Source: Candidatus Woesearchaeota archaeon
Lineage (GTDB): Archaea > Nanobdellota > Nanobdellia > Woesearchaeales > UBA525
Assembly: GCA_014874255.1 (NCBI GenBank)
Contig: JACWAN010000086.1
Location: 1 to 59,473, forward strand
Reading direction: 5' to 3'
Length of the DNA stretch: 59,473 bases
The notes beneath the pieces are model-generated. The model was given only the letters and a program-made list of their open reading frames with translations. It did no database searches and was not told where the DNA came from. This document shows positions 41,376 through 51,149 of the stretch, piece after piece. The position numbers and the translations under genes are program-made. Numbering within the stretch: the first letter of the stretch is position 1; each line of letters starts with the position of its first letter.

Positions 41376-41651
41376 CTACTCCTCTTCCGGGCTGTAGTTC
41401 GGCACGGCGGACTTGTTGATGATCATGATGTCGCCGATGCTCTTGACGAGCTGGTGCGGGACGATGACGCCCTTCGCGCTGCCCAGCACCTTGTTGAGGA
41501 AGCTGTTCTTCGTCGCGCGGACGCGCCACCCGAAGATCTTGTTCTGCGTCAGGATCATCTCCTCGACGTCGCCGAAGTAGTCGCCGGTGTCGGTGAACAC
41601 CTTCATCTCGTACGTCTCCGTTATCCGCTTCATCTTCAGCATGCGCATCAC
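41376..41651 (-). CDS. PRC-barrel-like small protein
   Basis: 91 aa with VFTDTGDYFGDVEEMIL..GVIVPHQLVKSIGDIMII. TATA-like ATTTAAAT about 35 nt upstream. Confidence 0.55.
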   Translation of the reverse strand: MMRMLKMKRITETYEMKVFTDTGDYFGDVEEMILTQNKIFGWRVRATKNSFLNKVLGSAKGVIVPHQLVKSIGDIMIINKSAVPNYSPEEE

Positions 41652-41876: not shown

Positions 41877-41948
41877 GGATGCGGCCGCGATGAAAATGCG
41901 GGTCACCGTCCTTCCCTCCGCCGGCCGATCCGTCGCCGGTAGTCGCGC

Positions 41949-42096
41949 CGTGGTCGCTGCTGCTCCCGGGTTCCTCGTATGACTCGGAACCGTGGTCGCT
42001 GCTGCTCCCGGGTTCCTCGTATGACTCGGAACCGTGGTCGCTGCTGCTCCCGGGTTCCTCGTATGACTCGGAACCGTGGTCGCTGCTGCTCCCGGG
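41949..42096. repeat. perfect 42-bp tandem repeat, 3.5 copies
   Basis: Unit CGTGGTCGCTGCTGCTCCCGGGTTCCTCGTATGACTCGGAAC at 41949, 41991 and 42033, with a partial copy at 42075-42096. Confidence 0.9.
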
Positions 42097-42144
42097 CGCT
42101 CCTACCGTCAGAACAGTCGCCGGTAGTCGCGCCACCCTCCTTTC

Positions 42145-42543
42145 TCAGCGCAACCGTTCTTCGAGGAGTTTCGAGAGCTTGCCGATGATGGCCTGGATGC
42201 GCGGCACGTTCCGGCTGACGTAGTCCGCGGGCACCATGAACCCTTCGTACGCAATCCTGTTCCGGTACTCCCTGAGCCCCTGCAGGAAGACCCTCGTCCC
42301 CTCTCCGAGCAGGTATTCCTTGCACGCATGGTCGATCAGCCGGGTGTGCGCGCCGTCGCCCTGCGTCTTGACGCCCTCGACGGCCGCGAGCGCCTCGAGC
42401 AGCTTGTGGATGATGTCGTAGTAGTCGGTCAGGGTGTTGGAGGGATAGGCCTCCTTCTCGGTCAGTTCGAGCCGTTCGAGGGTGACCATCGCCATCTTCC
42501 TGAGCGAGGCGGCCTTCTGCGGGTCCGGACGCACCTTCCGCAT
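42145..42543 (-). CDS. HEPN-domain protein (toxin partner of MNT)
   Basis: 132 aa, all-alpha, with LREYRNRIAYEG in the motif region. Its start abuts the stop of the upstream nucleotidyltransferase. Confidence 0.6.
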   Translation of the reverse strand: MRKVRPDPQKAASLRKMAMVTLERLELTEKEAYPSNTLTDYYDIIHKLLEALAAVEGVKTQGDGAHTRLIDHACKEYLLGEGTRVFLQGLREYRNRIAYEGFMVPADYVSRNVPRIQAIIGKLSKLLEERLR

Positions 42544-44135: not shown

Positions 44136-44529
44136 TGCGAACATCCTCTTCGCCGCGCTCGTCAGGGACGGCCTGACCCGCCAGCTTCTCTTCGAGCACG
44201 AGCTGCTCGCGCCGACGTTGATGCTGCGGGAGTTCCGCAAACATCGTGCCGTGCTCGAACGGAAGACCGGATTGCGTGACCACCTCCTCGACGAGCTTCT
44301 CTCCCTGCTTATCCAAGGTTCTGGCCTGCGTTTCCTCGAGCCGAGCGGTCGGATGCTCCGGGAAGCGGAACGCTTCTCCCCCGACAAGGGCGATGTCGAC
44401 TATCTCGCCCTCTGTCTCGATGAGGGCTGTGATCTCTGGTCGAACGACAAGCCGCTCCGTGGACAGGCGCGCGTCCGTGTCTGGTCGACGGAAGAGCTTT
44501 TCGGGAGCCGTCAGAACCGTCGCCGGTAG
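44119..44529 (+). CDS. vapC: PIN-domain toxin VapC
   Basis: GTG start. VVDANILFAALV (first acidic residue), ..DVDYLAL.., ..LWSNDK. Confidence 0.75.
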   Translation: MRLVVDANILFAALVRDGLTRQLLFEHELLAPTLMLREFRKHRAVLERKTGLRDHLLDELLSLLIQGSGLRFLEPSGRMLREAERFSPDKGDVDYLALCLDEGCDLWSNDKPLRGQARVRVWSTEELFGSRQNRRR

Positions 44530-47500
44530 TCGCGCCATTCCCGTTCGATCTGCTCCTCGTCCTCGCCGTTCTGCCGCGCGATGCCGTAGAACTCTTCCTT
44601 GCTCACGTGCTTCTGCGGCCCGGAGCGCGGCCCGAACCGCTGGAAGAAGATGAAGAGGAACCCCACCACGGGGACGAGGAGGAGGGAGAGCCACGGGCTC
44701 AACGGCCGGCCGACGCTCTGCGCGTACGCCAACGCCCGTAGCTGGGCGGCGCAGTCCGGGCTGATGTCCTTCGGCACGGTGAACCGGATCGTCTGCGCCT
44801 GGTCGAGGGTGTCGAACTGCCAGACGATGAGGGGGTCGTCCTGCACGACCTGGTAGTCGCCGCTCAGGTTGAGTTCGGACGCTTTCCCAGCCATGCATTT
44901 CGGGATCTCGATGGGGACGCGGAGCCCGCCGAGGCTCTTGCTCGGCGTGAGGGTCAGGTCGAACGCGGTGCCGTTGTCCGTCTTCTCCGTCTTGACGCCG
45001 ATGCTGAGCGCGTCCTTCGTCTTGTTCCACGCGTCGAGGAGCGACCCGTTCGCCTCCTGCGTGTAGGTGATGTTCGCGATCTCGATGAAGGAGAGGTAGG
45101 TGGGCTGGATGGGTCCGTTCGCGGCCGCGATCACGTCCTGCCGGGCGACGAGCCGCCCCACGGTGAAGCGGAGCGTCGTCGGCGACAGCGGCCGCATCTC
45201 CGCCCCGGTCACCTGCAGGGCCGACGGCACGTCGACGATGGTCTGGTAGATGGTCGCGGTGAACCCGACGTTGTCCAGGGGGGCTGCGCCGAGGTTCGAG
45301 ACCGAGAAGTCGAGGGCGCCGTCCCGGAGGCCGACCTTGATGAAGACGGGGCCGTTCGTCGCGAGGATGTCTTCCAGGTCGGCCGCGACCGTCGCGCTCT
45401 GGTTGATGACCTGCTGCGGCTGGCACCGGCTCAGGGTGCAGTCGCCCGGGTTGACGCACGAGTAGCCGTTGCCGCAGTCGCTGTCCTGGTCGCAGATGAC
45501 GCTGCAGTTCTGGACCGTGACGCACTTCCCGGCCTGGCACTGCTGGGCCGCGGTGCATTGGTTGCTGCACGCGCCGCAGTTGTCGTGGCTGCCCTGGAGG
45601 TCGACGCATTGGCCGTCGCAGCTCGTCGTGCCGGGCTGCGACTGGCAGGGCCGGAGCTGGACGCACTGGCCGCTGCCGCCGCTGACCGTGCATTCCTGCT
45701 CGTCCGTGCATGTGCGGACCGGCAGGGAGGCGTTGCAGCTCGGGTCGTACTGGACGAGGTCGTTGCCGATGCAGCGGAGCGTCGTCGGGCCCGTGCACTG
45801 GAGGCAGGAGTTCTCGTTCGCGCACCGGCCGCTCGCGCACGCCTGCCCGCTGTTCCAGACGTACGAGACGCCGTTCCACGTGCAGCTCCGCATCCGGCCG
45901 TCGCTGCACTCCGTGTCCCCCGCCGAGCAGGCGTCCTGCGGCGTGCAGTCGAGGCACGTGCATTCCCCGTTGGCGCAGACGCCTTGCCTGCCGTCGCTGA
46001 GCGTGCAGGACGCGGTGTTCGCCACATGGGTGCACGCGCCTGCGGCGCAGTGGTCGTCGGTGCAGGCGTTGCCGTCGTCGCACTGGCCGTTCGCCGTGCA
46101 GCCCGGAGCGGCGCACTGGCCGCCGCTGCAGGCCTGGCCGGCGGGGCAGTTCGCGGGCGCGCTCCACGCGTAGCACGCGCTCCCGGGCAGCTGGCTGCAC
46201 GTCTGGGTCTGGTTGGCGCTGCACCGCGACGTGCCGGGCACGCAGGGGTTGCTGCACGCGACGCAGATGCCGTTGCTGCATGAGCCCGCCTGATCGCCGA
46301 CGCTGCACGCCGTCGCGTCCGCGACGTTCGTGTACTGGCACGTGGAGTCGACGCATTGCGCGGTCTGGCACTGGCCTCCCTGCGTGCAGGACGCGTTCGT
46401 GATGTAGCAGTTCGCCGCTAGGCAGCTCGTCGCGTCCGCGCACTGTCCGGTCGTGCACTCGGTGGTGTTCCAGCCGAGCCAGCCGCCCTTGTCCACGCAC
46501 GTGCTGAGGCTGCCGCTGCTGCACGCCGTCGTGCCCGGGGAGCTGCATTGGCTCAGGGGGACGCAGGCGTGGACGGTCGCGCTGCACGTGGCGCCGCCCG
46601 TGCACGTGGCGCCGTTGTCCACGAGGCCGTCGCAGTTGTCGTCGAGGCCGTTGCAGATCTCCGTCGCGCCGGGGTGGATCGCCGCGTTGGTGTCGTCGCA
46701 GTCCTGGCTGTTCGTCACGTAGCCGCCGGGCGGGCTCACCGCCTGGATCGTCACGGCGGGGTCGCCGTACCCGTCCCCGTCCGCGTCCTTGTAGTAGGTG
46801 TGGACGGGGAGGCACTGCCCCGCGCTGCAGATGCGGTTCGTGCCGCATGACGTCCCGTCCGCGAGGTCCGCGTGAGTGCACGTGCCGGCGGCGACGCTGC
46901 ACGCGTCCGTCGTGCACGGGTTGTCGTCGTTGCAGTCGGCGTCCTTGGCGCACGAGCCGCACGACGCGCCGCCGCTGCCCGTGACGCAGGTGATCGCGCA
47001 CGTCTGCTCGTCGGTCCAGTAGCTGCACCCGTACGCGTTCGCGCTGCAGGATTGGATGGTGTTGCCGCTGCACCGCGTCGTGCCCGTGCATCCCTCGTAC
47101 GGCGATGCCTGCTGCACGCAGGCGCAGGTGCCGCCCTGGTTGACGTAGCCGGCGGAGCAGCCGTAGCAGCTCGTCGGGCTCGTGCAGAAGTACTGGCTGA
47201 AGAGCGTCGCGTGCGCCGGCGCGGGCGACGCGCAGAAGTACGGGTTCGCGCAGGACGCGACGCACTGGCCGCCGCTGCATGTCTGGCCGGCGCCGCACGT
47301 GCCGCAGCTGCCGCCGCACCCGTCGTCGCCGCATTGTTTGCCGGCGCAGTTCGCCGGGCGCGGATCAGTCGCCTGGCACGCGCCGTACTGGCCGTTGCTG
47401 CAGTACTTCGTCCCGGTCGCGGTGCACGTGCCGAACGCGGCGGTGCAGTTCGCCGAGGCGGCTCCGCAGTTCAGCGTGCCGCCGCACGTGTCGGATTGCT

Positions 47501-48542
47501 GGCCGCAGTTGTAGCCGAGCGCGCTGCACGTCGGCGGAGACAACGGGGTGCACGTCGACGCTGGCGGCGTCCACGCGCCGCTGCTGCACGTCTGCTTGAG
47601 CGTGTTCGCGCACTCCCCGCTGCCGCACGAGACCGTGTTCGTCTGGCCGGCGCTGCACTCCGTCCCGACGCACTGGCCGCTGCTGCAGACCTGGCCGGAG
47701 GGGCAGGCGTGGCCGCATGATCCGCAGTTGTTCGTGTCCGTCTGGAGGTTGAGGCACGTCGCCGTGCTCCCGCTGCCGCACTGCGAATAGCCGGCGTTGC
47801 ACGTGCACGTCCCGCCGCTCTGGTGCGCGTTCGCGTTGCACGCGTAGCAGCTCCCCGCGTCGCAGTAGTACTGGTTGAAGAGCGTCGCGAGCGTCCCCGC
47901 GCTCCCGCAGAAATACGGGCTGCCCAGCGCGGCGCAGGACGGCTTGCACGCGCCGTTCCCCGTGCACACGCTCCCCGCCGGGCACGTCTGGAAGTTCCCC
48001 CACGAGAGACACGAGCTCCCCCCATAATACCCGCACGTCTCGCTGACCGTGCGGCTGGAACAAGCGGTATCATATAGTTTTCCGCAAGTATCAGTGCATG
48101 AAGTTGTGCATTGACCGCTTGATGCGTCGCACGTCGTGTTAGAACCGCACGTCTGCACGTACTGCCACTGGAGGCAGCCGCTCACGCTCGTACACACGTA
48201 CAAGTCCTGGTTCGACGTCCCCGTGCACGAATGCGTGTTGGCTGTCGTGCACGTCGGCGTACAGTTCGCCACGCACGTCGTTCCGTCCCAGTTATATCCC
48301 GATGCGCAGCCATAGCATTGTTGCGGAGAAACGCAGACATAAGGTTCAAGAATTGAATGTGCTGGTTGGGAACCAACACAAAAATAAGGGTTTGGACAAA
48401 AATTGTCGCAATCACCGCACGGAGGGAATTGACCGGTTTCTCCTGGTTCGCAGATGTTGTTATTATTGCAGCTTGCTTGGACAAAGCGAGGGATAACTAT
48501 GAATATGATGAGGATAAGTAAGATCTCCCACCTCCACTTCAT
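44511..48542 (-). CDS. giant cysteine-rich secreted surface protein with C-terminal TM anchor
   Basis: 1343 aa. Signal peptide MKWRWEILLILIIFIVIPRFVQAS. About 1 residue in 9 is Cys over roughly 950 aa (CxxGQC-type repeats). MopE-like segment YYKDADGDGYGDP..DCDDTNAAIHPGATEICNGLDDNCDG. Beta-rich stalk, a TM segment (LLLVPVVGFLFIFF) and a charged tail. Confidence 0.8.
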   Translation of the reverse strand: MKWRWEILLILIIFIVIPRFVQASCNNNNICEPGETGQFPPCGDCDNFCPNPYFCVGSQPAHSILEPYVCVSPQQCYGCASGYNWDGTTCVANCTPTCTTANTHSCTGTSNQDLYVCTSVSGCLQWQYVQTCGSNTTCDASSGQCTTSCTDTCGKLYDTACSSRTVSETCGYYGGSSCLSWGNFQTCPAGSVCTGNGACKPSCAALGSPYFCGSAGTLATLFNQYYCDAGSCYACNANAHQSGGTCTCNAGYSQCGSGSTATCLNLQTDTNNCGSCGHACPSGQVCSSGQCVGTECSAGQTNTVSCGSGECANTLKQTCSSGAWTPPASTCTPLSPPTCSALGYNCGQQSDTCGGTLNCGAASANCTAAFGTCTATGTKYCSNGQYGACQATDPRPANCAGKQCGDDGCGGSCGTCGAGQTCSGGQCVASCANPYFCASPAPAHATLFSQYFCTSPTSCYGCSAGYVNQGGTCACVQQASPYEGCTGTTRCSGNTIQSCSANAYGCSYWTDEQTCAITCVTGSGGASCGSCAKDADCNDDNPCTTDACSVAAGTCTHADLADGTSCGTNRICSAGQCLPVHTYYKDADGDGYGDPAVTIQAVSPPGGYVTNSQDCDDTNAAIHPGATEICNGLDDNCDGLVDNGATCTGGATCSATVHACVPLSQCSSPGTTACSSGSLSTCVDKGGWLGWNTTECTTGQCADATSCLAANCYITNASCTQGGQCQTAQCVDSTCQYTNVADATACSVGDQAGSCSNGICVACSNPCVPGTSRCSANQTQTCSQLPGSACYAWSAPANCPAGQACSGGQCAAPGCTANGQCDDGNACTDDHCAAGACTHVANTASCTLSDGRQGVCANGECTCLDCTPQDACSAGDTECSDGRMRSCTWNGVSYVWNSGQACASGRCANENSCLQCTGPTTLRCIGNDLVQYDPSCNASLPVRTCTDEQECTVSGGSGQCVQLRPCQSQPGTTSCDGQCVDLQGSHDNCGACSNQCTAAQQCQAGKCVTVQNCSVICDQDSDCGNGYSCVNPGDCTLSRCQPQQVINQSATVAADLEDILATNGPVFIKVGLRDGALDFSVSNLGAAPLDNVGFTATIYQTIVDVPSALQVTGAEMRPLSPTTLRFTVGRLVARQDVIAAANGPIQPTYLSFIEIANITYTQEANGSLLDAWNKTKDALSIGVKTEKTDNGTAFDLTLTPSKSLGGLRVPIEIPKCMAGKASELNLSGDYQVVQDDPLIVWQFDTLDQAQTIRFTVPKDISPDCAAQLRALAYAQSVGRPLSPWLSLLLVPVVGFLFIFFQRFGPRSGPQKHVSKEEFYGIARQNGEDEEQIEREWRDYRRRF

Positions 48543-48582
48543 GATGAAGATTTAGAAGAATTCGTTTTAAAAACTTTCTGCC

Positions 48583-49839
48583 CTACTTCCTGAACGGCGT
48601 CGAGACAGATGGCATACTATGGTCAAACACCGACGTGGTAGACCAACTCTCCTTGGAAGGGTTGTTTGTTGTCTGATTGAGTGTGTCCCAGTGAGGCGGG
48701 CAACTCATATCAATCTTGTCCAGGCCTTGGCAGTTGTACTCTGGTTTGTGTGTGTCGACGTAGCCAGGCAAGGCCTGCGTCCTGTAGAGATTGCGCATCG
48801 CCTGGATGTCTGAAGGATTCAGGTGTATCTCCGCAATCCCCCCATTATTGACAAAAAGGATGTATGACGTCGTGTTTATCTCGACAGGGTCATGGATATT
48901 AGTAATCTCTCCATTTGATTGGTCTCCATCGACATAGCTGAGCAGCCAGGCTTCCATCTGATCGACAGTTGTGCCGTTCGTGTTGTCGGGTGATCTCACA
49001 AGGATGGTCGAGATGTCCTGTAAATCTTGACTCTCGTTTAAGATGCCGTACGCCTCTGTGACTCTCCCGTAGAAGTTACCCGTCGGGAACCAGAAGTTGC
49101 AGAAGTCATAGACGGTGGGTTCTGTCGTGCTGAAGTTCTGCATCGTTCTGAGTCTCGTGTCGCCGCTGACGGGGCTGGTGTAGAGGAGGAGGCCGCCGGC
49201 CTTGCTCTGGTCGCTGACTTGCGGTATGAGCGTGTCTGTGCTTCCCGGGGGGAAACCGAGTTGGTAAGTGGAGCCGACTTTACCTGAGGTGACAATTCCG
49301 GGAGGAACATATTCGGTCGGTGCCGGAGTCGGTCCTGTCCCGTCTGGTCCGTAGGCTTGGTGGTTGAGGGTGTTGTTGCTGCTGCTGTCGCCGGAGAGGA
49401 CGATCTCTCGTTCCCATTGCATCCCGTTCGCGAGGATTCCTGCTTCTGGTTGTTCGTTGTTTTTCGCGTTTGCGGGGAGGACGGGGATGTTCATGCCGCT
49501 GCCGTCCGTGTTTTGGATGCTGGCGGTGAGGACTGCGTCGTCGCCGGTGCTCGTCACGTACGCGCTTCCTTCCTGGGTGAGCGGGTTGGCGAGCGTGCCG
49601 CTCTGTCCGGGGGTGAGCGTCACGGTTTCGGGCGTGCCGTTGCGGGGGTCTTGGCCCATGGGGGCGTACGTCGCCGTGATGGTGATCGTCTGCGGGGAGG
49701 CGTTCAGCGCCGTGACTTTCGCGTTCTGGTTCAGGTACGGGATGATCTGGCTGCCCATCGCTCCGAGGCTGAGGGCGGCGCTGATCATCGTCACGCCGAG
49801 GCGTCTTTTCGTCGAGGAGAGGAGTTGTTCGAGGGTCAT
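48583..49839 (-). CDS. secreted/membrane-anchored protein, unknown function
   Basis: 418 aa. N-terminus MTLEQLL..KRRLGVTMISAALSLGAMG. Rich in T/S/N/G and lower in GC than the flanks. Confidence 0.6.
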   Translation of the reverse strand: MTLEQLLSSTKRRLGVTMISAALSLGAMGSQIIPYLNQNAKVTALNASPQTITITATYAPMGQDPRNGTPETVTLTPGQSGTLANPLTQEGSAYVTSTGDDAVLTASIQNTDGSGMNIPVLPANAKNNEQPEAGILANGMQWEREIVLSGDSSSNNTLNHQAYGPDGTGPTPAPTEYVPPGIVTSGKVGSTYQLGFPPGSTDTLIPQVSDQSKAGGLLLYTSPVSGDTRLRTMQNFSTTEPTVYDFCNFWFPTGNFYGRVTEAYGILNESQDLQDISTILVRSPDNTNGTTVDQMEAWLLSYVDGDQSNGEITNIHDPVEINTTSYILFVNNGGIAEIHLNPSDIQAMRNLYRTQALPGYVDTHKPEYNCQGLDKIDMSCPPHWDTLNQTTNNPSKESWSTTSVFDHSMPSVSTPFRK

Positions 49840-49845
49840 GTTTTC

Positions 49846-50952
49846 TCACCAGTTCGGTTTTTGTTTCGTCCAGGCGGCGTTCGGCCGCGCGGAGAGGAGT
49901 GGGGCGTTGGTGCCGTAGTACTGCGTCCAATGCTCGCCGACGAAGGGCGCCAGCGCCTCTTGGACGAAGCCGTACGGGTTCGGGACGCTGGCCGTAATCC
50001 TCATCATGCCGTTCACCTTCTTCGCGTTCAGTCCGGAGACGTCCGTGGCCCGCGTCACGAAGAGGTAGAGGGCGCCGTTCGCGACCTTGAGGGGCGCGCC
50101 TCCTGCGAAGCTGCCGTCGGACGGGTCGGAGTTCTCCCAGTGCAGCAGCACGAGCTTCATCGTGGCGGCGTCGCCGAACTTCTGCTTGAAGAGCGGATCC
50201 TGGAGGAGGTACGCGCTGAGCGCGTCCGTGATGCCCGTCGTCTCCGCGGGCGAGAGCTTGATCGGCTTCGAGGCGGGCTTCATCCATTTCGTGACGCAGT
50301 AATAGCCGAGCATCGGCGTCGCGCGCGGCGCCATGTCGACGTACTGTTCATCGCCCATGCTGTTCTGCGCCATGAGGACGCCGCGGCCGCTCCCTTGGAG
50401 GAACTGGATGCCGATCCCTGCGCCGTCAGGCAGGCTGCCGAGCACCGTCTGCGGATCGAGGACGGTGCCGTCCGGATAGACGCCGATGGCGACGTTGATG
50501 AGACGCCCGTCCGGTTGCGTCGCGTAGATCGCCGCGGTCACGGTCGCGCCGCCGGCCTCGATGCCGAGCTTCGCGCCCGTCGGGAGCTGACCGTAGACAT
50601 CCTCGGTGTTCGCGAGGTCCTCCAGCGTGTAGATCGGCGGCGAGGCGATGAAGCCGTTCACCCCGGTCTCCACATCGACCACCGGGTCAGGGTACTTGTT
50701 CCCCATGCTGTCCGTGCCGGGGACGATCCGTATCTGGGTGGCCTGCTCCGGGAACTCGAACACCTGATGCGGGCCGATGGTGTACTGCTGGCCGTTGATC
50801 GTGCCGTCGACCGCGACCGCGGACGGGTTGTAGATCCTCGCTTCCGACGGATTGCCCGTCGTCGGGACGATGATGTCCGCGTTCGCCGGCGTTCCGATGA
50901 GCGTCGCGCCTGCGACCATCGCGCCTGCGAGGATCTTTTCGAGTGTGTTCAT
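49846..50952 (-). CDS. secreted protein, unknown function
   Basis: 368 aa. N-terminus MNTLEKILAGAMVAGATLIGTPANA. SD-like GGTGA and a TATA-like TTTATATATG lie upstream on the minus strand. Confidence 0.6.
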   Translation of the reverse strand: MNTLEKILAGAMVAGATLIGTPANADIIVPTTGNPSEARIYNPSAVAVDGTINGQQYTIGPHQVFEFPEQATQIRIVPGTDSMGNKYPDPVVDVETGVNGFIASPPIYTLEDLANTEDVYGQLPTGAKLGIEAGGATVTAAIYATQPDGRLINVAIGVYPDGTVLDPQTVLGSLPDGAGIGIQFLQGSGRGVLMAQNSMGDEQYVDMAPRATPMLGYYCVTKWMKPASKPIKLSPAETTGITDALSAYLLQDPLFKQKFGDAATMKLVLLHWENSDPSDGSFAGGAPLKVANGALYLFVTRATDVSGLNAKKVNGMMRITASVPNPYGFVQEALAPFVGEHWTQYYGTNAPLLSARPNAAWTKQKPNW

Positions 50953-51149
50953 TCGGTTCTCACCTGTGTCGCACCAGTATTACATCCTTTCTCATATATA
51001 AATGTTTCGGTTGGAGACTACTGTTGAGTGACAAAATAATGAATTTTTCTGGCGGCATGCACGAAAAGAGCTGCTTGGAGGGACACATCAAGCAAAAGTA
51101 TCCCTCCGGAGAGGGAAACTTTATAAGTACTGTTCTATTTTCAGAACAT

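Follow-up and report, generated by a model that had tools for sequence, protein, structure and literature searches.

A life in attachment to other cells is presumed for the DPANN archaea, their surface molecules are almost entirely uncharacterised, and giant cysteine-rich surface proteins have been noted in genome surveys of two of their lineages, Woesearchaeota and Pacearchaeota. Here we analyze a locus coding for such a protein in a 59,473-nt stretch of DNA from a Candidatus Woesearchaeota archaeon (the window; contig JACWAN010000086.1 of assembly GCA_014874255.1), all coordinates being window positions. The source genome amounts to 1.29 Mb in 122 contigs at 81.5% completeness, and genomes of its order span 0.6-2.3 Mb. 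The locus comprises three co-directional genes, termed A, B and C, with spacers of 6 nt between A and B and 40 nt between B and C (Table 1). An earlier reading made from the letters alone (the sequence-only reading) had reported these three minus-strand genes with their sizes, gaps and N-terminal hydrophobic leaders; the open reading frames (ORFs) were found at exactly those positions, all three leaders are present, and the secreted or surface nature of the products is supported. Our central observation is that A and B share a hitherto undescribed C-terminal domain (CTD), and that in B this domain differs among close relatives as one block with the N-terminal tip of the giant protein C.

Table 1. 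Genes and features of the A-B-C locus
Feature	Position	Strand	Description	Basis
gene A	49846..50952	-	368 aa, predicted secreted two-domain protein: Sec-type leader, beta-rich N-domain, divergent CTD	ORF
gene B	48583..49839	-	418 aa, predicted secreted two-domain protein: leader, conserved N-domain, swappable CTD	ORF
gene C	44511..48542	-	1343 aa, predicted type-I membrane-anchored giant surface protein, 148 Cys	ORF
CTD of A	49849..50325	-	residues ~210-367, divergent	hhalign; hmmsearch also matches A homologues
B N-terminal domain	49132..49749	-	residues ~31-236, begins with beta-sandwich	52-92% identity to homologues
CTD of B	48664..49143	-	residues 233-392	boundaries from hmmsearch; E 2.6e-60
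exchange cassette	48278..49130	-	CTD of B, intergenic region and first 88 codons of C (leader and first Cys module)	blastn
Cys-rich ectodomain of C	45423..48470	-	residues 25-1040 (~1,015 residues), mosaic of small disulfide modules	regex map
PF11617 (Cu-binding_MopE, putative metal-binding motif)	46617..46703	-	C residues 614-642	Pfam
juxtamembrane and transmembrane anchor module	44625..45005	-	...IPKC..AE...DDPLIVW.F...C..QL...PW..LLVPVVG..IFFQRF	profile
charged tail of C, predicted cytoplasmic	44514..44642	-	residues 1301-1343 (43 residues), ends REWRDYRRRF	sequence
TATA box TTTATATA upstream of A	50995..51002	-	upstream block conserved in L003, L007	
Shine-Dalgarno-like GGTGAG before A	50959..50964	-		
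TATA-like box TTTTTAAAA	48565..48573	-	23-31 nt before ATG of C, in B-C spacer with T5 run	
30-nt direct repeat	44508..44537 and 42105..42134	.	97% identical; first copy covers last eight codons of C; pair brackets toxin-antitoxin island 42135-44507	

Proteins A and B have no match in Pfam or NCBIfam, both families are small (five clusters for A and eight for B among 5.8 billion proteins), and a direct BLASTP comparison of A with B yields no significant similarity, their relationship emerging with profiles only. When 1.84 billion representatives were searched with a profile of the B alignment, 62 matches were recovered, most of them to just the last ~170 residues of B. The domain thus delimited, the CTD, is always C-terminal in host proteins of 97-1192 aa, sometimes in two to four tandem copies (up to four in P0023), and has the consensus YVxxWLP..FYLSNxExRAMING..GTRSYAxDxAxIL...LEQWL...DGxxSNGEL...DP...YGG..GGxPD..NPTWxTQDPN (alignment A3) with few invariant residues (D, L, W). 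Sequence and profile searches with the CTD and the proteins bearing it returned no match in Pfam, NCBIfam or PDB. When the A family was compared by hhalign with a CTD alignment lacking the B family, the whole domain was matched with 97.9% probability (E 3.9e-13), the terminal AAWTKQKPN of A corresponding to NPTWxTQDPN; in the B protein of the window this terminal motif is degenerate (PPHWDTLNQTTN) and 26 extra residues follow it. The statement of the sequence-only reading that no domain can be recognized in the two upstream proteins thus holds for the databases, but both proteins carry a definable, widespread and undescribed one. Structure prediction, which that reading had asked for, was run on A and B and gave poor AlphaFold2 models from shallow alignments (pLDDT 56 and 44, respectively); only residues 30-110 of B, at the start of its beta-sandwich, reach 65-85. 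In Foldseek searches residues ~30-120 of the B model resembled weakly a generic TM1070/ASRT-like beta-sandwich (TM-score ~0.6 normalized to the target), and the matches of the A model were meaningless (TM-score at most 0.24).

The CTD of B falls within a region of anomalous base composition. The drop in G+C content (GC) noticed earlier at ~48.1-49.3 kb is real (0.47-0.53 against 0.65-0.73 around it), and blastn comparisons with related loci, designated L001 and so on, resolve it to a cassette of 853 bp with a GC of 0.48 between flanks of 0.65-0.69; the equivalents in L001, L004 and L008 have a GC of 0.50-0.53. The window aligns with L001 over 50901-49131 (87%) and again over 48277-47107 (84%), the stretch separating the two being unrelated, and against L008 it is 96% identical up to 49117 and unrelated thereafter. 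Both breakpoints lie within genes. In the B protein the variable part sets in after the conserved junction SGDTRxRxMQNF, and at least three C-terminal variants exist among close relatives: the N-domain and CTD of B are 91.5% and 33% identical to those of P0008, and 82% and 22% to those of P0010, identity of the C-terminal half to homologues falling to 21-33% overall. The classes of the CTD coincide with those of the tip of C (its first Cys module), namely {window, L004}, {L001, L003, L008} and {L025, L033}, and L007 combines a third, unrelated B C-terminus with a third tip type. The variability that had been claimed for the locus is borne out.

Within one cassette type dN/dS is 0.07-0.16 at a dS of 0.58-1.04. 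For the window and L004, which share a type, the CTD shows a dN/dS of 0.07 at a dS of 1.04, whereas the A gene and the B N-domain show a dS of 0.25-0.33 and a dN/dS of 0.30-0.38, and residues 89-215 of C, the adjacent Cys-rich part, a dS of 0.54 and a dN/dS of 0.39. Because dS is higher and dN/dS low within a type, the cassette is older than its flanks and strongly constrained, and such purifying selection implies that it is functional. The cassette variants would accordingly represent long-lived functional alleles, a better fit to these values than decay. Switching from silent copies was considered and rejected, as C contains no long internal repeats and the genome no second copy of the CTD. 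A conserved N-terminal part with an abruptly variable C-terminus in at least three forms also brings to mind the polymorphic effectors of the CdiA/Rhs kind, in which case A and B would be secreted proteins with swappable toxic or enzymatic C-terminal modules; toxin-antitoxin (TA) genes and an integrase are indeed found near several of the loci. We hold this explanation to be very improbable: the variants belong to one conserved domain family that occurs in tandem copies and matches no toxin or enzyme in Pfam, NCBIfam or PDB, and the next gene is not a small immunity-like one but that of a 1343-aa giant surface protein.

In some B homologues (P0012 of L007, P0010 and P0011) the CTD is replaced by an alternative C-terminus with the pattern ..VVDHGQG...TPAEQQEFSGD...APFVND.D.DGS.C..TDQ.Y.N.I..TIT, which is also found between the CTD copies of the 1080-aa protein P0020 (residues ~625-745), and which might be a second undescribed module of the same toolkit.

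The CTD gene is closely linked to a gene for a giant protein beyond the immediate relatives of the window. In 10 of the 12 loci examined it lies ~40-50 nt upstream of a C-type gene (window, L001, L003, L004, L007, L008, L025, L030 from genome G008, L031, apparently identical to locus G002:C14, and L033); the only C-type genes without it are that of L032 and the second paralogue of L031. The co-occurrence of the trio that had been put forward as a check was found in six loci (window, L001/L002, L003, L004, L007 and L008): the A and B families are always together in the same order, and a Cys-rich gene with a leader is next in every one of them. L007 belongs to G006, a genome of the same genus as the window, and adjoins the same replication factor C (RFC)-intein gene. 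Outside the trio loci, a 414-aa CTD partner precedes a 1184-aa giant with 118 Cys in L025, and a 620-aa partner precedes a 1378-aa giant with 130 Cys in L030, which comes from another genus. The N-domains of the partners can be aligned among the trio loci but not with those of L025, L030, L031 and L033, whereas the CTD is constant throughout. In the genomes of the family that have a CTD, its gene abuts that of a giant wherever the contig is long enough to permit the check. The public gene call for C (P0078) is 1152 aa long; it lacks the 191 N-terminal residues, and with them the leader and the low-GC cassette. That for the C-type gene of L031 (L031 7212-11423) likewise begins ~260 codons late, so that in automated annotation neither the leader nor the closeness of the partner gene can be seen.

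Two of the trio loci have peculiarities of their own. At ~4200-7499 of L001 the C-type gene loses similarity after about codon 489 and runs into opposite-strand genes of a bacterial-type type IV secretion system (TrbI/VirB10 and a VirB9-like ORF) at a uniform GC of 66%, which may with equal likelihood reflect a chimera produced by MEGAHIT in assembling the GC-rich Cys repeats or an insertion or conjugative element. L008 is a 4.3-kb contig (JBAWEQ010000213.1), 96% identical to the window in A and the N-domain part of B, that was binned in a metagenome-assembled genome (MAG) of Acidobacteriota, probably in error.

Protein C had been described as containing roughly 100 cysteines; it is indeed Cys-rich, but the count is 148, or 11% of its residues. 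Of these, 146 lie within residues 25-1040 at a density of 8-16 per 100 residues, and the other two, the conserved C1216 and C1264, are both in the juxtamembrane domain. A regex map of the ectodomain distinguishes seven Trp-marked modules with five or six Cys, three PYFC modules, two of the form CxDxNxCTxDxC, two of the form NCGxC...GQC and one MopE region. The last corresponds to the MopE-like segment seen in the sequence-only reading and matches the 30-position profile of PF11617 at 48 bits, well over the cut-off of 27 (E 1.5e-12), this being the sole Pfam family that C matches at E ≤ 0.1; in particular, there is no match to a Giardia variant-specific surface protein (VSP) family. NCBIfam gives a weak MXAN_6577-like match below its cut-off. 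A PDB sequence search with C gave as its only hit a weak match to MopE (2vov, E 0.097) over 38 residues of the motif region, and PDB sequence and profile searches with C and its C-terminal region returned nothing usable. We rejected a MopE-type copper protein as an identity for C, since homology does not go beyond the short motif. No archaeal S-layer family of Pfam or NCBIfam matches A, B, C or the anchor module described below at E ≤ 0.1.

The C-terminal part of C is the conserved one. Its transmembrane (TM) helix (residues ~1284-1300; 44643-44693) contains Pro and follows the domain holding C1216 and C1264; both this anchor and the charged tail beyond it had been called earlier and are present in the sequence. 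C is predicted to be anchored through this one C-terminal helix, the conserved charged tail lying on the cytoplasmic side. Full-length relatives of C are 42-48% identical over the last 303 aa, and their Cys-rich parts cannot be aligned by BLAST. The tail (..KEEFYGIARQNGEDEEQIEREWRDYRRRF) is conserved within the family, and L011, L012 and L025 share in it the pattern ...KxEFxxxxxxQGxxxExxxxxWxxYxRxF/W; that it is kept although the ectodomains are unalignable hints at an intracellular partner. A single-sequence search with the last ~180 residues found matches in 77 of 201 genomes of the order, and a profile of 10 diverse members (alignment A4), against which C of the window scores E 3.8e-49, found the module in 125 of 199 high-quality genomes at one to five copies each. 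The frames in question have ~180-7,300 codons in sampled genomes of 28-66% GC, the module sits at the C-terminus of the ORF in all ten examples read, and only one other ORF of the source genome, which is 81.5% complete, matches it even weakly. The juxtamembrane and TM module has no Pfam match and represents a predicted anchor for large proteins across the order. An archaeosortase substrate of the PGF-CTERM kind was rejected for C, which lacks a PGF motif and continues beyond the TM helix for 43 residues of conserved tail.

The leaders and promoters bear on the way in which the sequence-only reading had put these elements together, namely as one three-gene operon by which an episymbiont would build an apparatus dedicated to host attachment, some subunits of which might be pilin-like (class III). 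We judged the leader class by eye, class III being marked by a short N-terminus that carries charges, by K/R-G/A with some 20 hydrophobic residues immediately after it, and by the lack of an AxA site further on. The leader of A (MNTLEKILAGAMVAGATLIGTPANA/D, the slash marking the presumed site) has a hydrophobic core of 14 residues and then TPANA/D (end of leader ..EKILAGAMVAGATLIGTPANA/D), the TPAxA/D site being invariant in an alignment of A homologues whose N-regions differ elsewhere. That of B (MTLEQLLSSTKRRLGVTMISAALSLGAMGS, the leader being read as KRRLGVTMISAALSLGAMGS) has KRR followed by a core of 16 residues, and that of C a strongly hydrophobic core ending in ..IVIPRFVQA/S. None of the three has the K/R-G/A plus hydrophobic pattern, and the AxA-type sites (TPANA/D, VQA/S) are those of ordinary Sec-type leaders, which rules out pilin-like proteins for A and B. 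C is hence predicted to be exported through a Sec-type leader and A and B to be Sec-secreted soluble proteins. The shared start of A and B remarked upon earlier, M-x-(T/S)LE(K/Q)(I/L)L, is present and conserved among homologues of both families; its acidic residue is unusual for an n-region.

The TATA/Shine-Dalgarno region assumed for the operon is not the only one: a second, TATA-like box (TTTTTAAAA) precedes C, and every one of the seven C-type genes whose upstream sequence was read (window, L001, L003, L004, L007, L025 and L030) has an A/T-rich box of this kind at ~23-34 nt from its ATG. C is probably transcribed from a near-leaderless promoter of its own, and the A-B transcript could end at the T5 run of the B-C spacer; for these two reasons a single promoter and operon are doubtful. 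In favor of the episymbiont operon are the co-conserved gene order, the small genome (1.29 Mb at 81.5% completeness) and fast evolution, A being 42% identical between congeners, and the tail region of C 46% identical in a relative whose neighboring PRC protein is 91% identical. With the leaders and the second promoter-like box pointing elsewhere, and with a fusion of A and B in a low-GC, bacterial-looking contig indicating that the module is not specific to episymbionts, we consider that model in its full form to be quite improbable.

The fusion is a 720-aa protein of another organism (P0017/P0074; L022 10001-12163). Its gene has 55% GC in a contig of 37-40% GC, stands between genes for a leucine-rich repeat (LRR)/fn3 protein and an adenylate-cyclase/AAA/tetratricopeptide repeat (TPR) protein, and has a bacterial-type GAGGAGG Shine-Dalgarno sequence; it likely arose by horizontal transfer between domains of life.

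Several observations converge on a connection between the CTD and C that we would formulate as follows. B, and probably A too, would use the CTD to dock at the N-terminal tip of C, the end remote from the membrane; C would in that case be an anchored stalk presenting the N-domains of its partners, and these would be the candidate ligand-binding parts (candidate ligands being a host cell, a polysaccharide or a mineral). For this proposal, with docking of the CTD on the tip and display of the partner N-domains by C at the cell surface, we regard the chances as about evenly balanced. The CTD and the tip being a matched pair would explain why they are replaced jointly as one cassette: recombination between strains would exchange both in a single 0.85-kb piece, resulting in several surface types per population. 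The more specific version, in which the CTD of B and the first Cys-knot module of C form an allele-specific docking pair, dockerin/cohesin-like and of undescribed folds, that co-occurring DPANN strains swap as the 0.85-kb cassette, is a tentative one that we think rather unlikely. Attachment to a host by way of the locus is put forward solely as a hypothesis.

A number of points weigh against docking. Physical adjacency alone can explain the co-variation of CTD and tip, and in one comparison, L030 with L031, the tips are 51% alike but the CTDs just 28%. CTD partners are patchy in their distribution (5 of 19 genomes of the family and 2 of 201 of the order), the giant of L032 has none, and in L004, where A and B are intact, the C-type gene is only 220 codons long and lacks the anchor. 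CTD proteins with no Cys-rich neighbor also occur in bacterial-looking contigs, beside an extracytoplasmic function (ECF) sigma factor and a Ser/Thr kinase in L026 and beside the adenylate-cyclase/TPR protein in L022; the CTD is thus not confined to these archaea and may bind something more general.

Most of these points are equally at home in an explanation by which the genes are mere neighbors: C would be a general structural protein of the envelope, S-layer- or glycocalyx-like, under its own promoter, A and B would be independent secreted proteins with a CTD directed not at C but at some common polymer of the envelope or the environment, for instance a glycan, and the cassette would be the trace of one recombination tract. 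The persistence of A and B beside the truncated C of L004, the CTD proteins of bacterial-looking contigs, an anchor module that is order-wide when CTD partners are rare, and the TATA-like box conserved in C-type genes all speak for it, as do the tandem CTD copies (up to four, in P0023), which are typical of polymer-binding repeats. To these can be added the genomic setting of C, which sits in a conserved envelope/glycosyltransferase neighborhood. In L031, L032 and L033 the C-type gene is followed by a PRC-barrel gene, an opposite-strand gene of ~356 aa, genes for proteins of 496 and 433 aa and family 2 (GT2) glycosyltransferases, and the window keeps this order from 41.6 kb down to 35.9 kb (identities of 91% for the PRC protein, 58% for the 496-aa and 50% for the 433-aa protein). 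On the other side, the genes are adjacent in 10 of 12 loci although the N-domains of the trio loci cannot be aligned with those of L025, L030, L031 and L033; both breakpoints are located within coding sequence, one at the edge of the CTD and the other behind the first module of C, which is unexpected for a random tract; and C matches no archaeal S-layer family in Pfam or NCBIfam. We consider that the genes are mere neighbors to be a serious contender, if on balance a somewhat unlikely one.

In either case the synteny with the PRC-barrel and GT2 envelope cluster contradicts the placement of C in a variable island, and the gene order indicates that C is a conserved, fast-evolving chromosomal envelope gene rather than an island gene. 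In the window the cluster at 35.9-41.7 kb consists of the PRC-barrel gene (41376-41651), genes for uncharacterised proteins of ~343, 502 and 418 aa, and GT2 genes, several members having no Pfam family.

The arrangement can be compared with several known systems. The giant Cys-rich proteins reported from DPANN genomes are alike in being membrane-associated and disulfide-rich, with 1-2 thousand residues, Trp-marked multi-Cys modules, smaller partner genes and no curated family; unlike them, the locus described here has Sec-secreted two-domain partners with a CTD in place of class III ones, a type-I giant with a defined anchor module, and a partner domain and tip swapped as one cassette. Cohesin-dockerin cellulosomes provide a parallel to the proposed logic, with secreted subunits that carry a C-terminal module, an anchored multi-module scaffold and apparently type-matched pairs, and the DGDxSNGE loop of the CTD resembles a Ca-binding loop; however, there is no sequence or structural match, binding is a proposal in the present case, and the putative receptor is a Cys-knot tip rather than a cohesin. 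The VSPs and high-cysteine membrane proteins (HCMPs) of Giardia have the same type-I layout, in which Cys accounts for ~11% of the residues, the Cys-rich ectodomain is a mosaic, and one TM helix leads to a cytoplasmic tail that is short and conserved, but C has no Pfam VSP match at E ≤ 0.1, comes from an archaeon, and varies between strains, with no sign of switching or silent copies in the genome. The SlaA/SlaB S-layer of Sulfolobales is likewise a two-component envelope structure from adjacent genes with one product anchored in the membrane, although no homology exists, the anchored protein here is the giant, and partners so rare in the order do not make a universal lattice. With MopE of Methylococcus capsulatus C shares one copy of DCDDxxxxxxPGxxExCNGxDDNCDG above the Pfam cut-off; the similarity is limited to this 29-residue motif, and neither the copper site nor any other part of MopE is represented in C. 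A literature search on cysteine-rich surface proteins of DPANN archaea and Woesearchaeota returned nothing relevant, and an Asgard preprint on mobile genetic elements concerns small Cys-rich nucleases. The Sec-type CTD partners, the definitions of the CTD and of the anchor module, and the paired cassette exchange are new here.

The locus accordingly yields objects that lend themselves to experiment: an anchor module found across an order, a new domain of secreted proteins that is shared with bacteria, and a natural "swap experiment" of CTD and tip. If CTD and tip are a cognate docking interface, they would reveal how the outer surface of these cells is built and diversified, and would furnish a small, expressible pair of domains for binding assays. 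If the pair is in addition allele-specific, it would define discrete, long-lived surface types, comparable to serotypes or mating types, that could set host or partner specificity.

The TA genes said to flank the locus on both sides are there for the most part (PIN, MNT and DUF7557 downstream; winged helix-turn-helix (wHTH)-MNT, HEPN and MazE/AbrB-ParE upstream), with the exception of a HEPN call at 42145-42543 that has no Pfam match. The downstream block of 2.4 kb is an insertion, because in relatives the PRC-barrel gene directly follows C. It codes for a HEPN-like/MNT pair, a DUF7557 antitoxin accompanied by a broken RelE, and a PIN protein with an antitoxin, and has no integrase; the 30-nt direct repeats around it could be a target duplication or att-like sites. 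A third, degenerate copy of this repeat (83%) is found at 41921-41950, and just past the second copy, at 41948-42096, lies a perfect 42-bp tandem repeat of 3.5 units.

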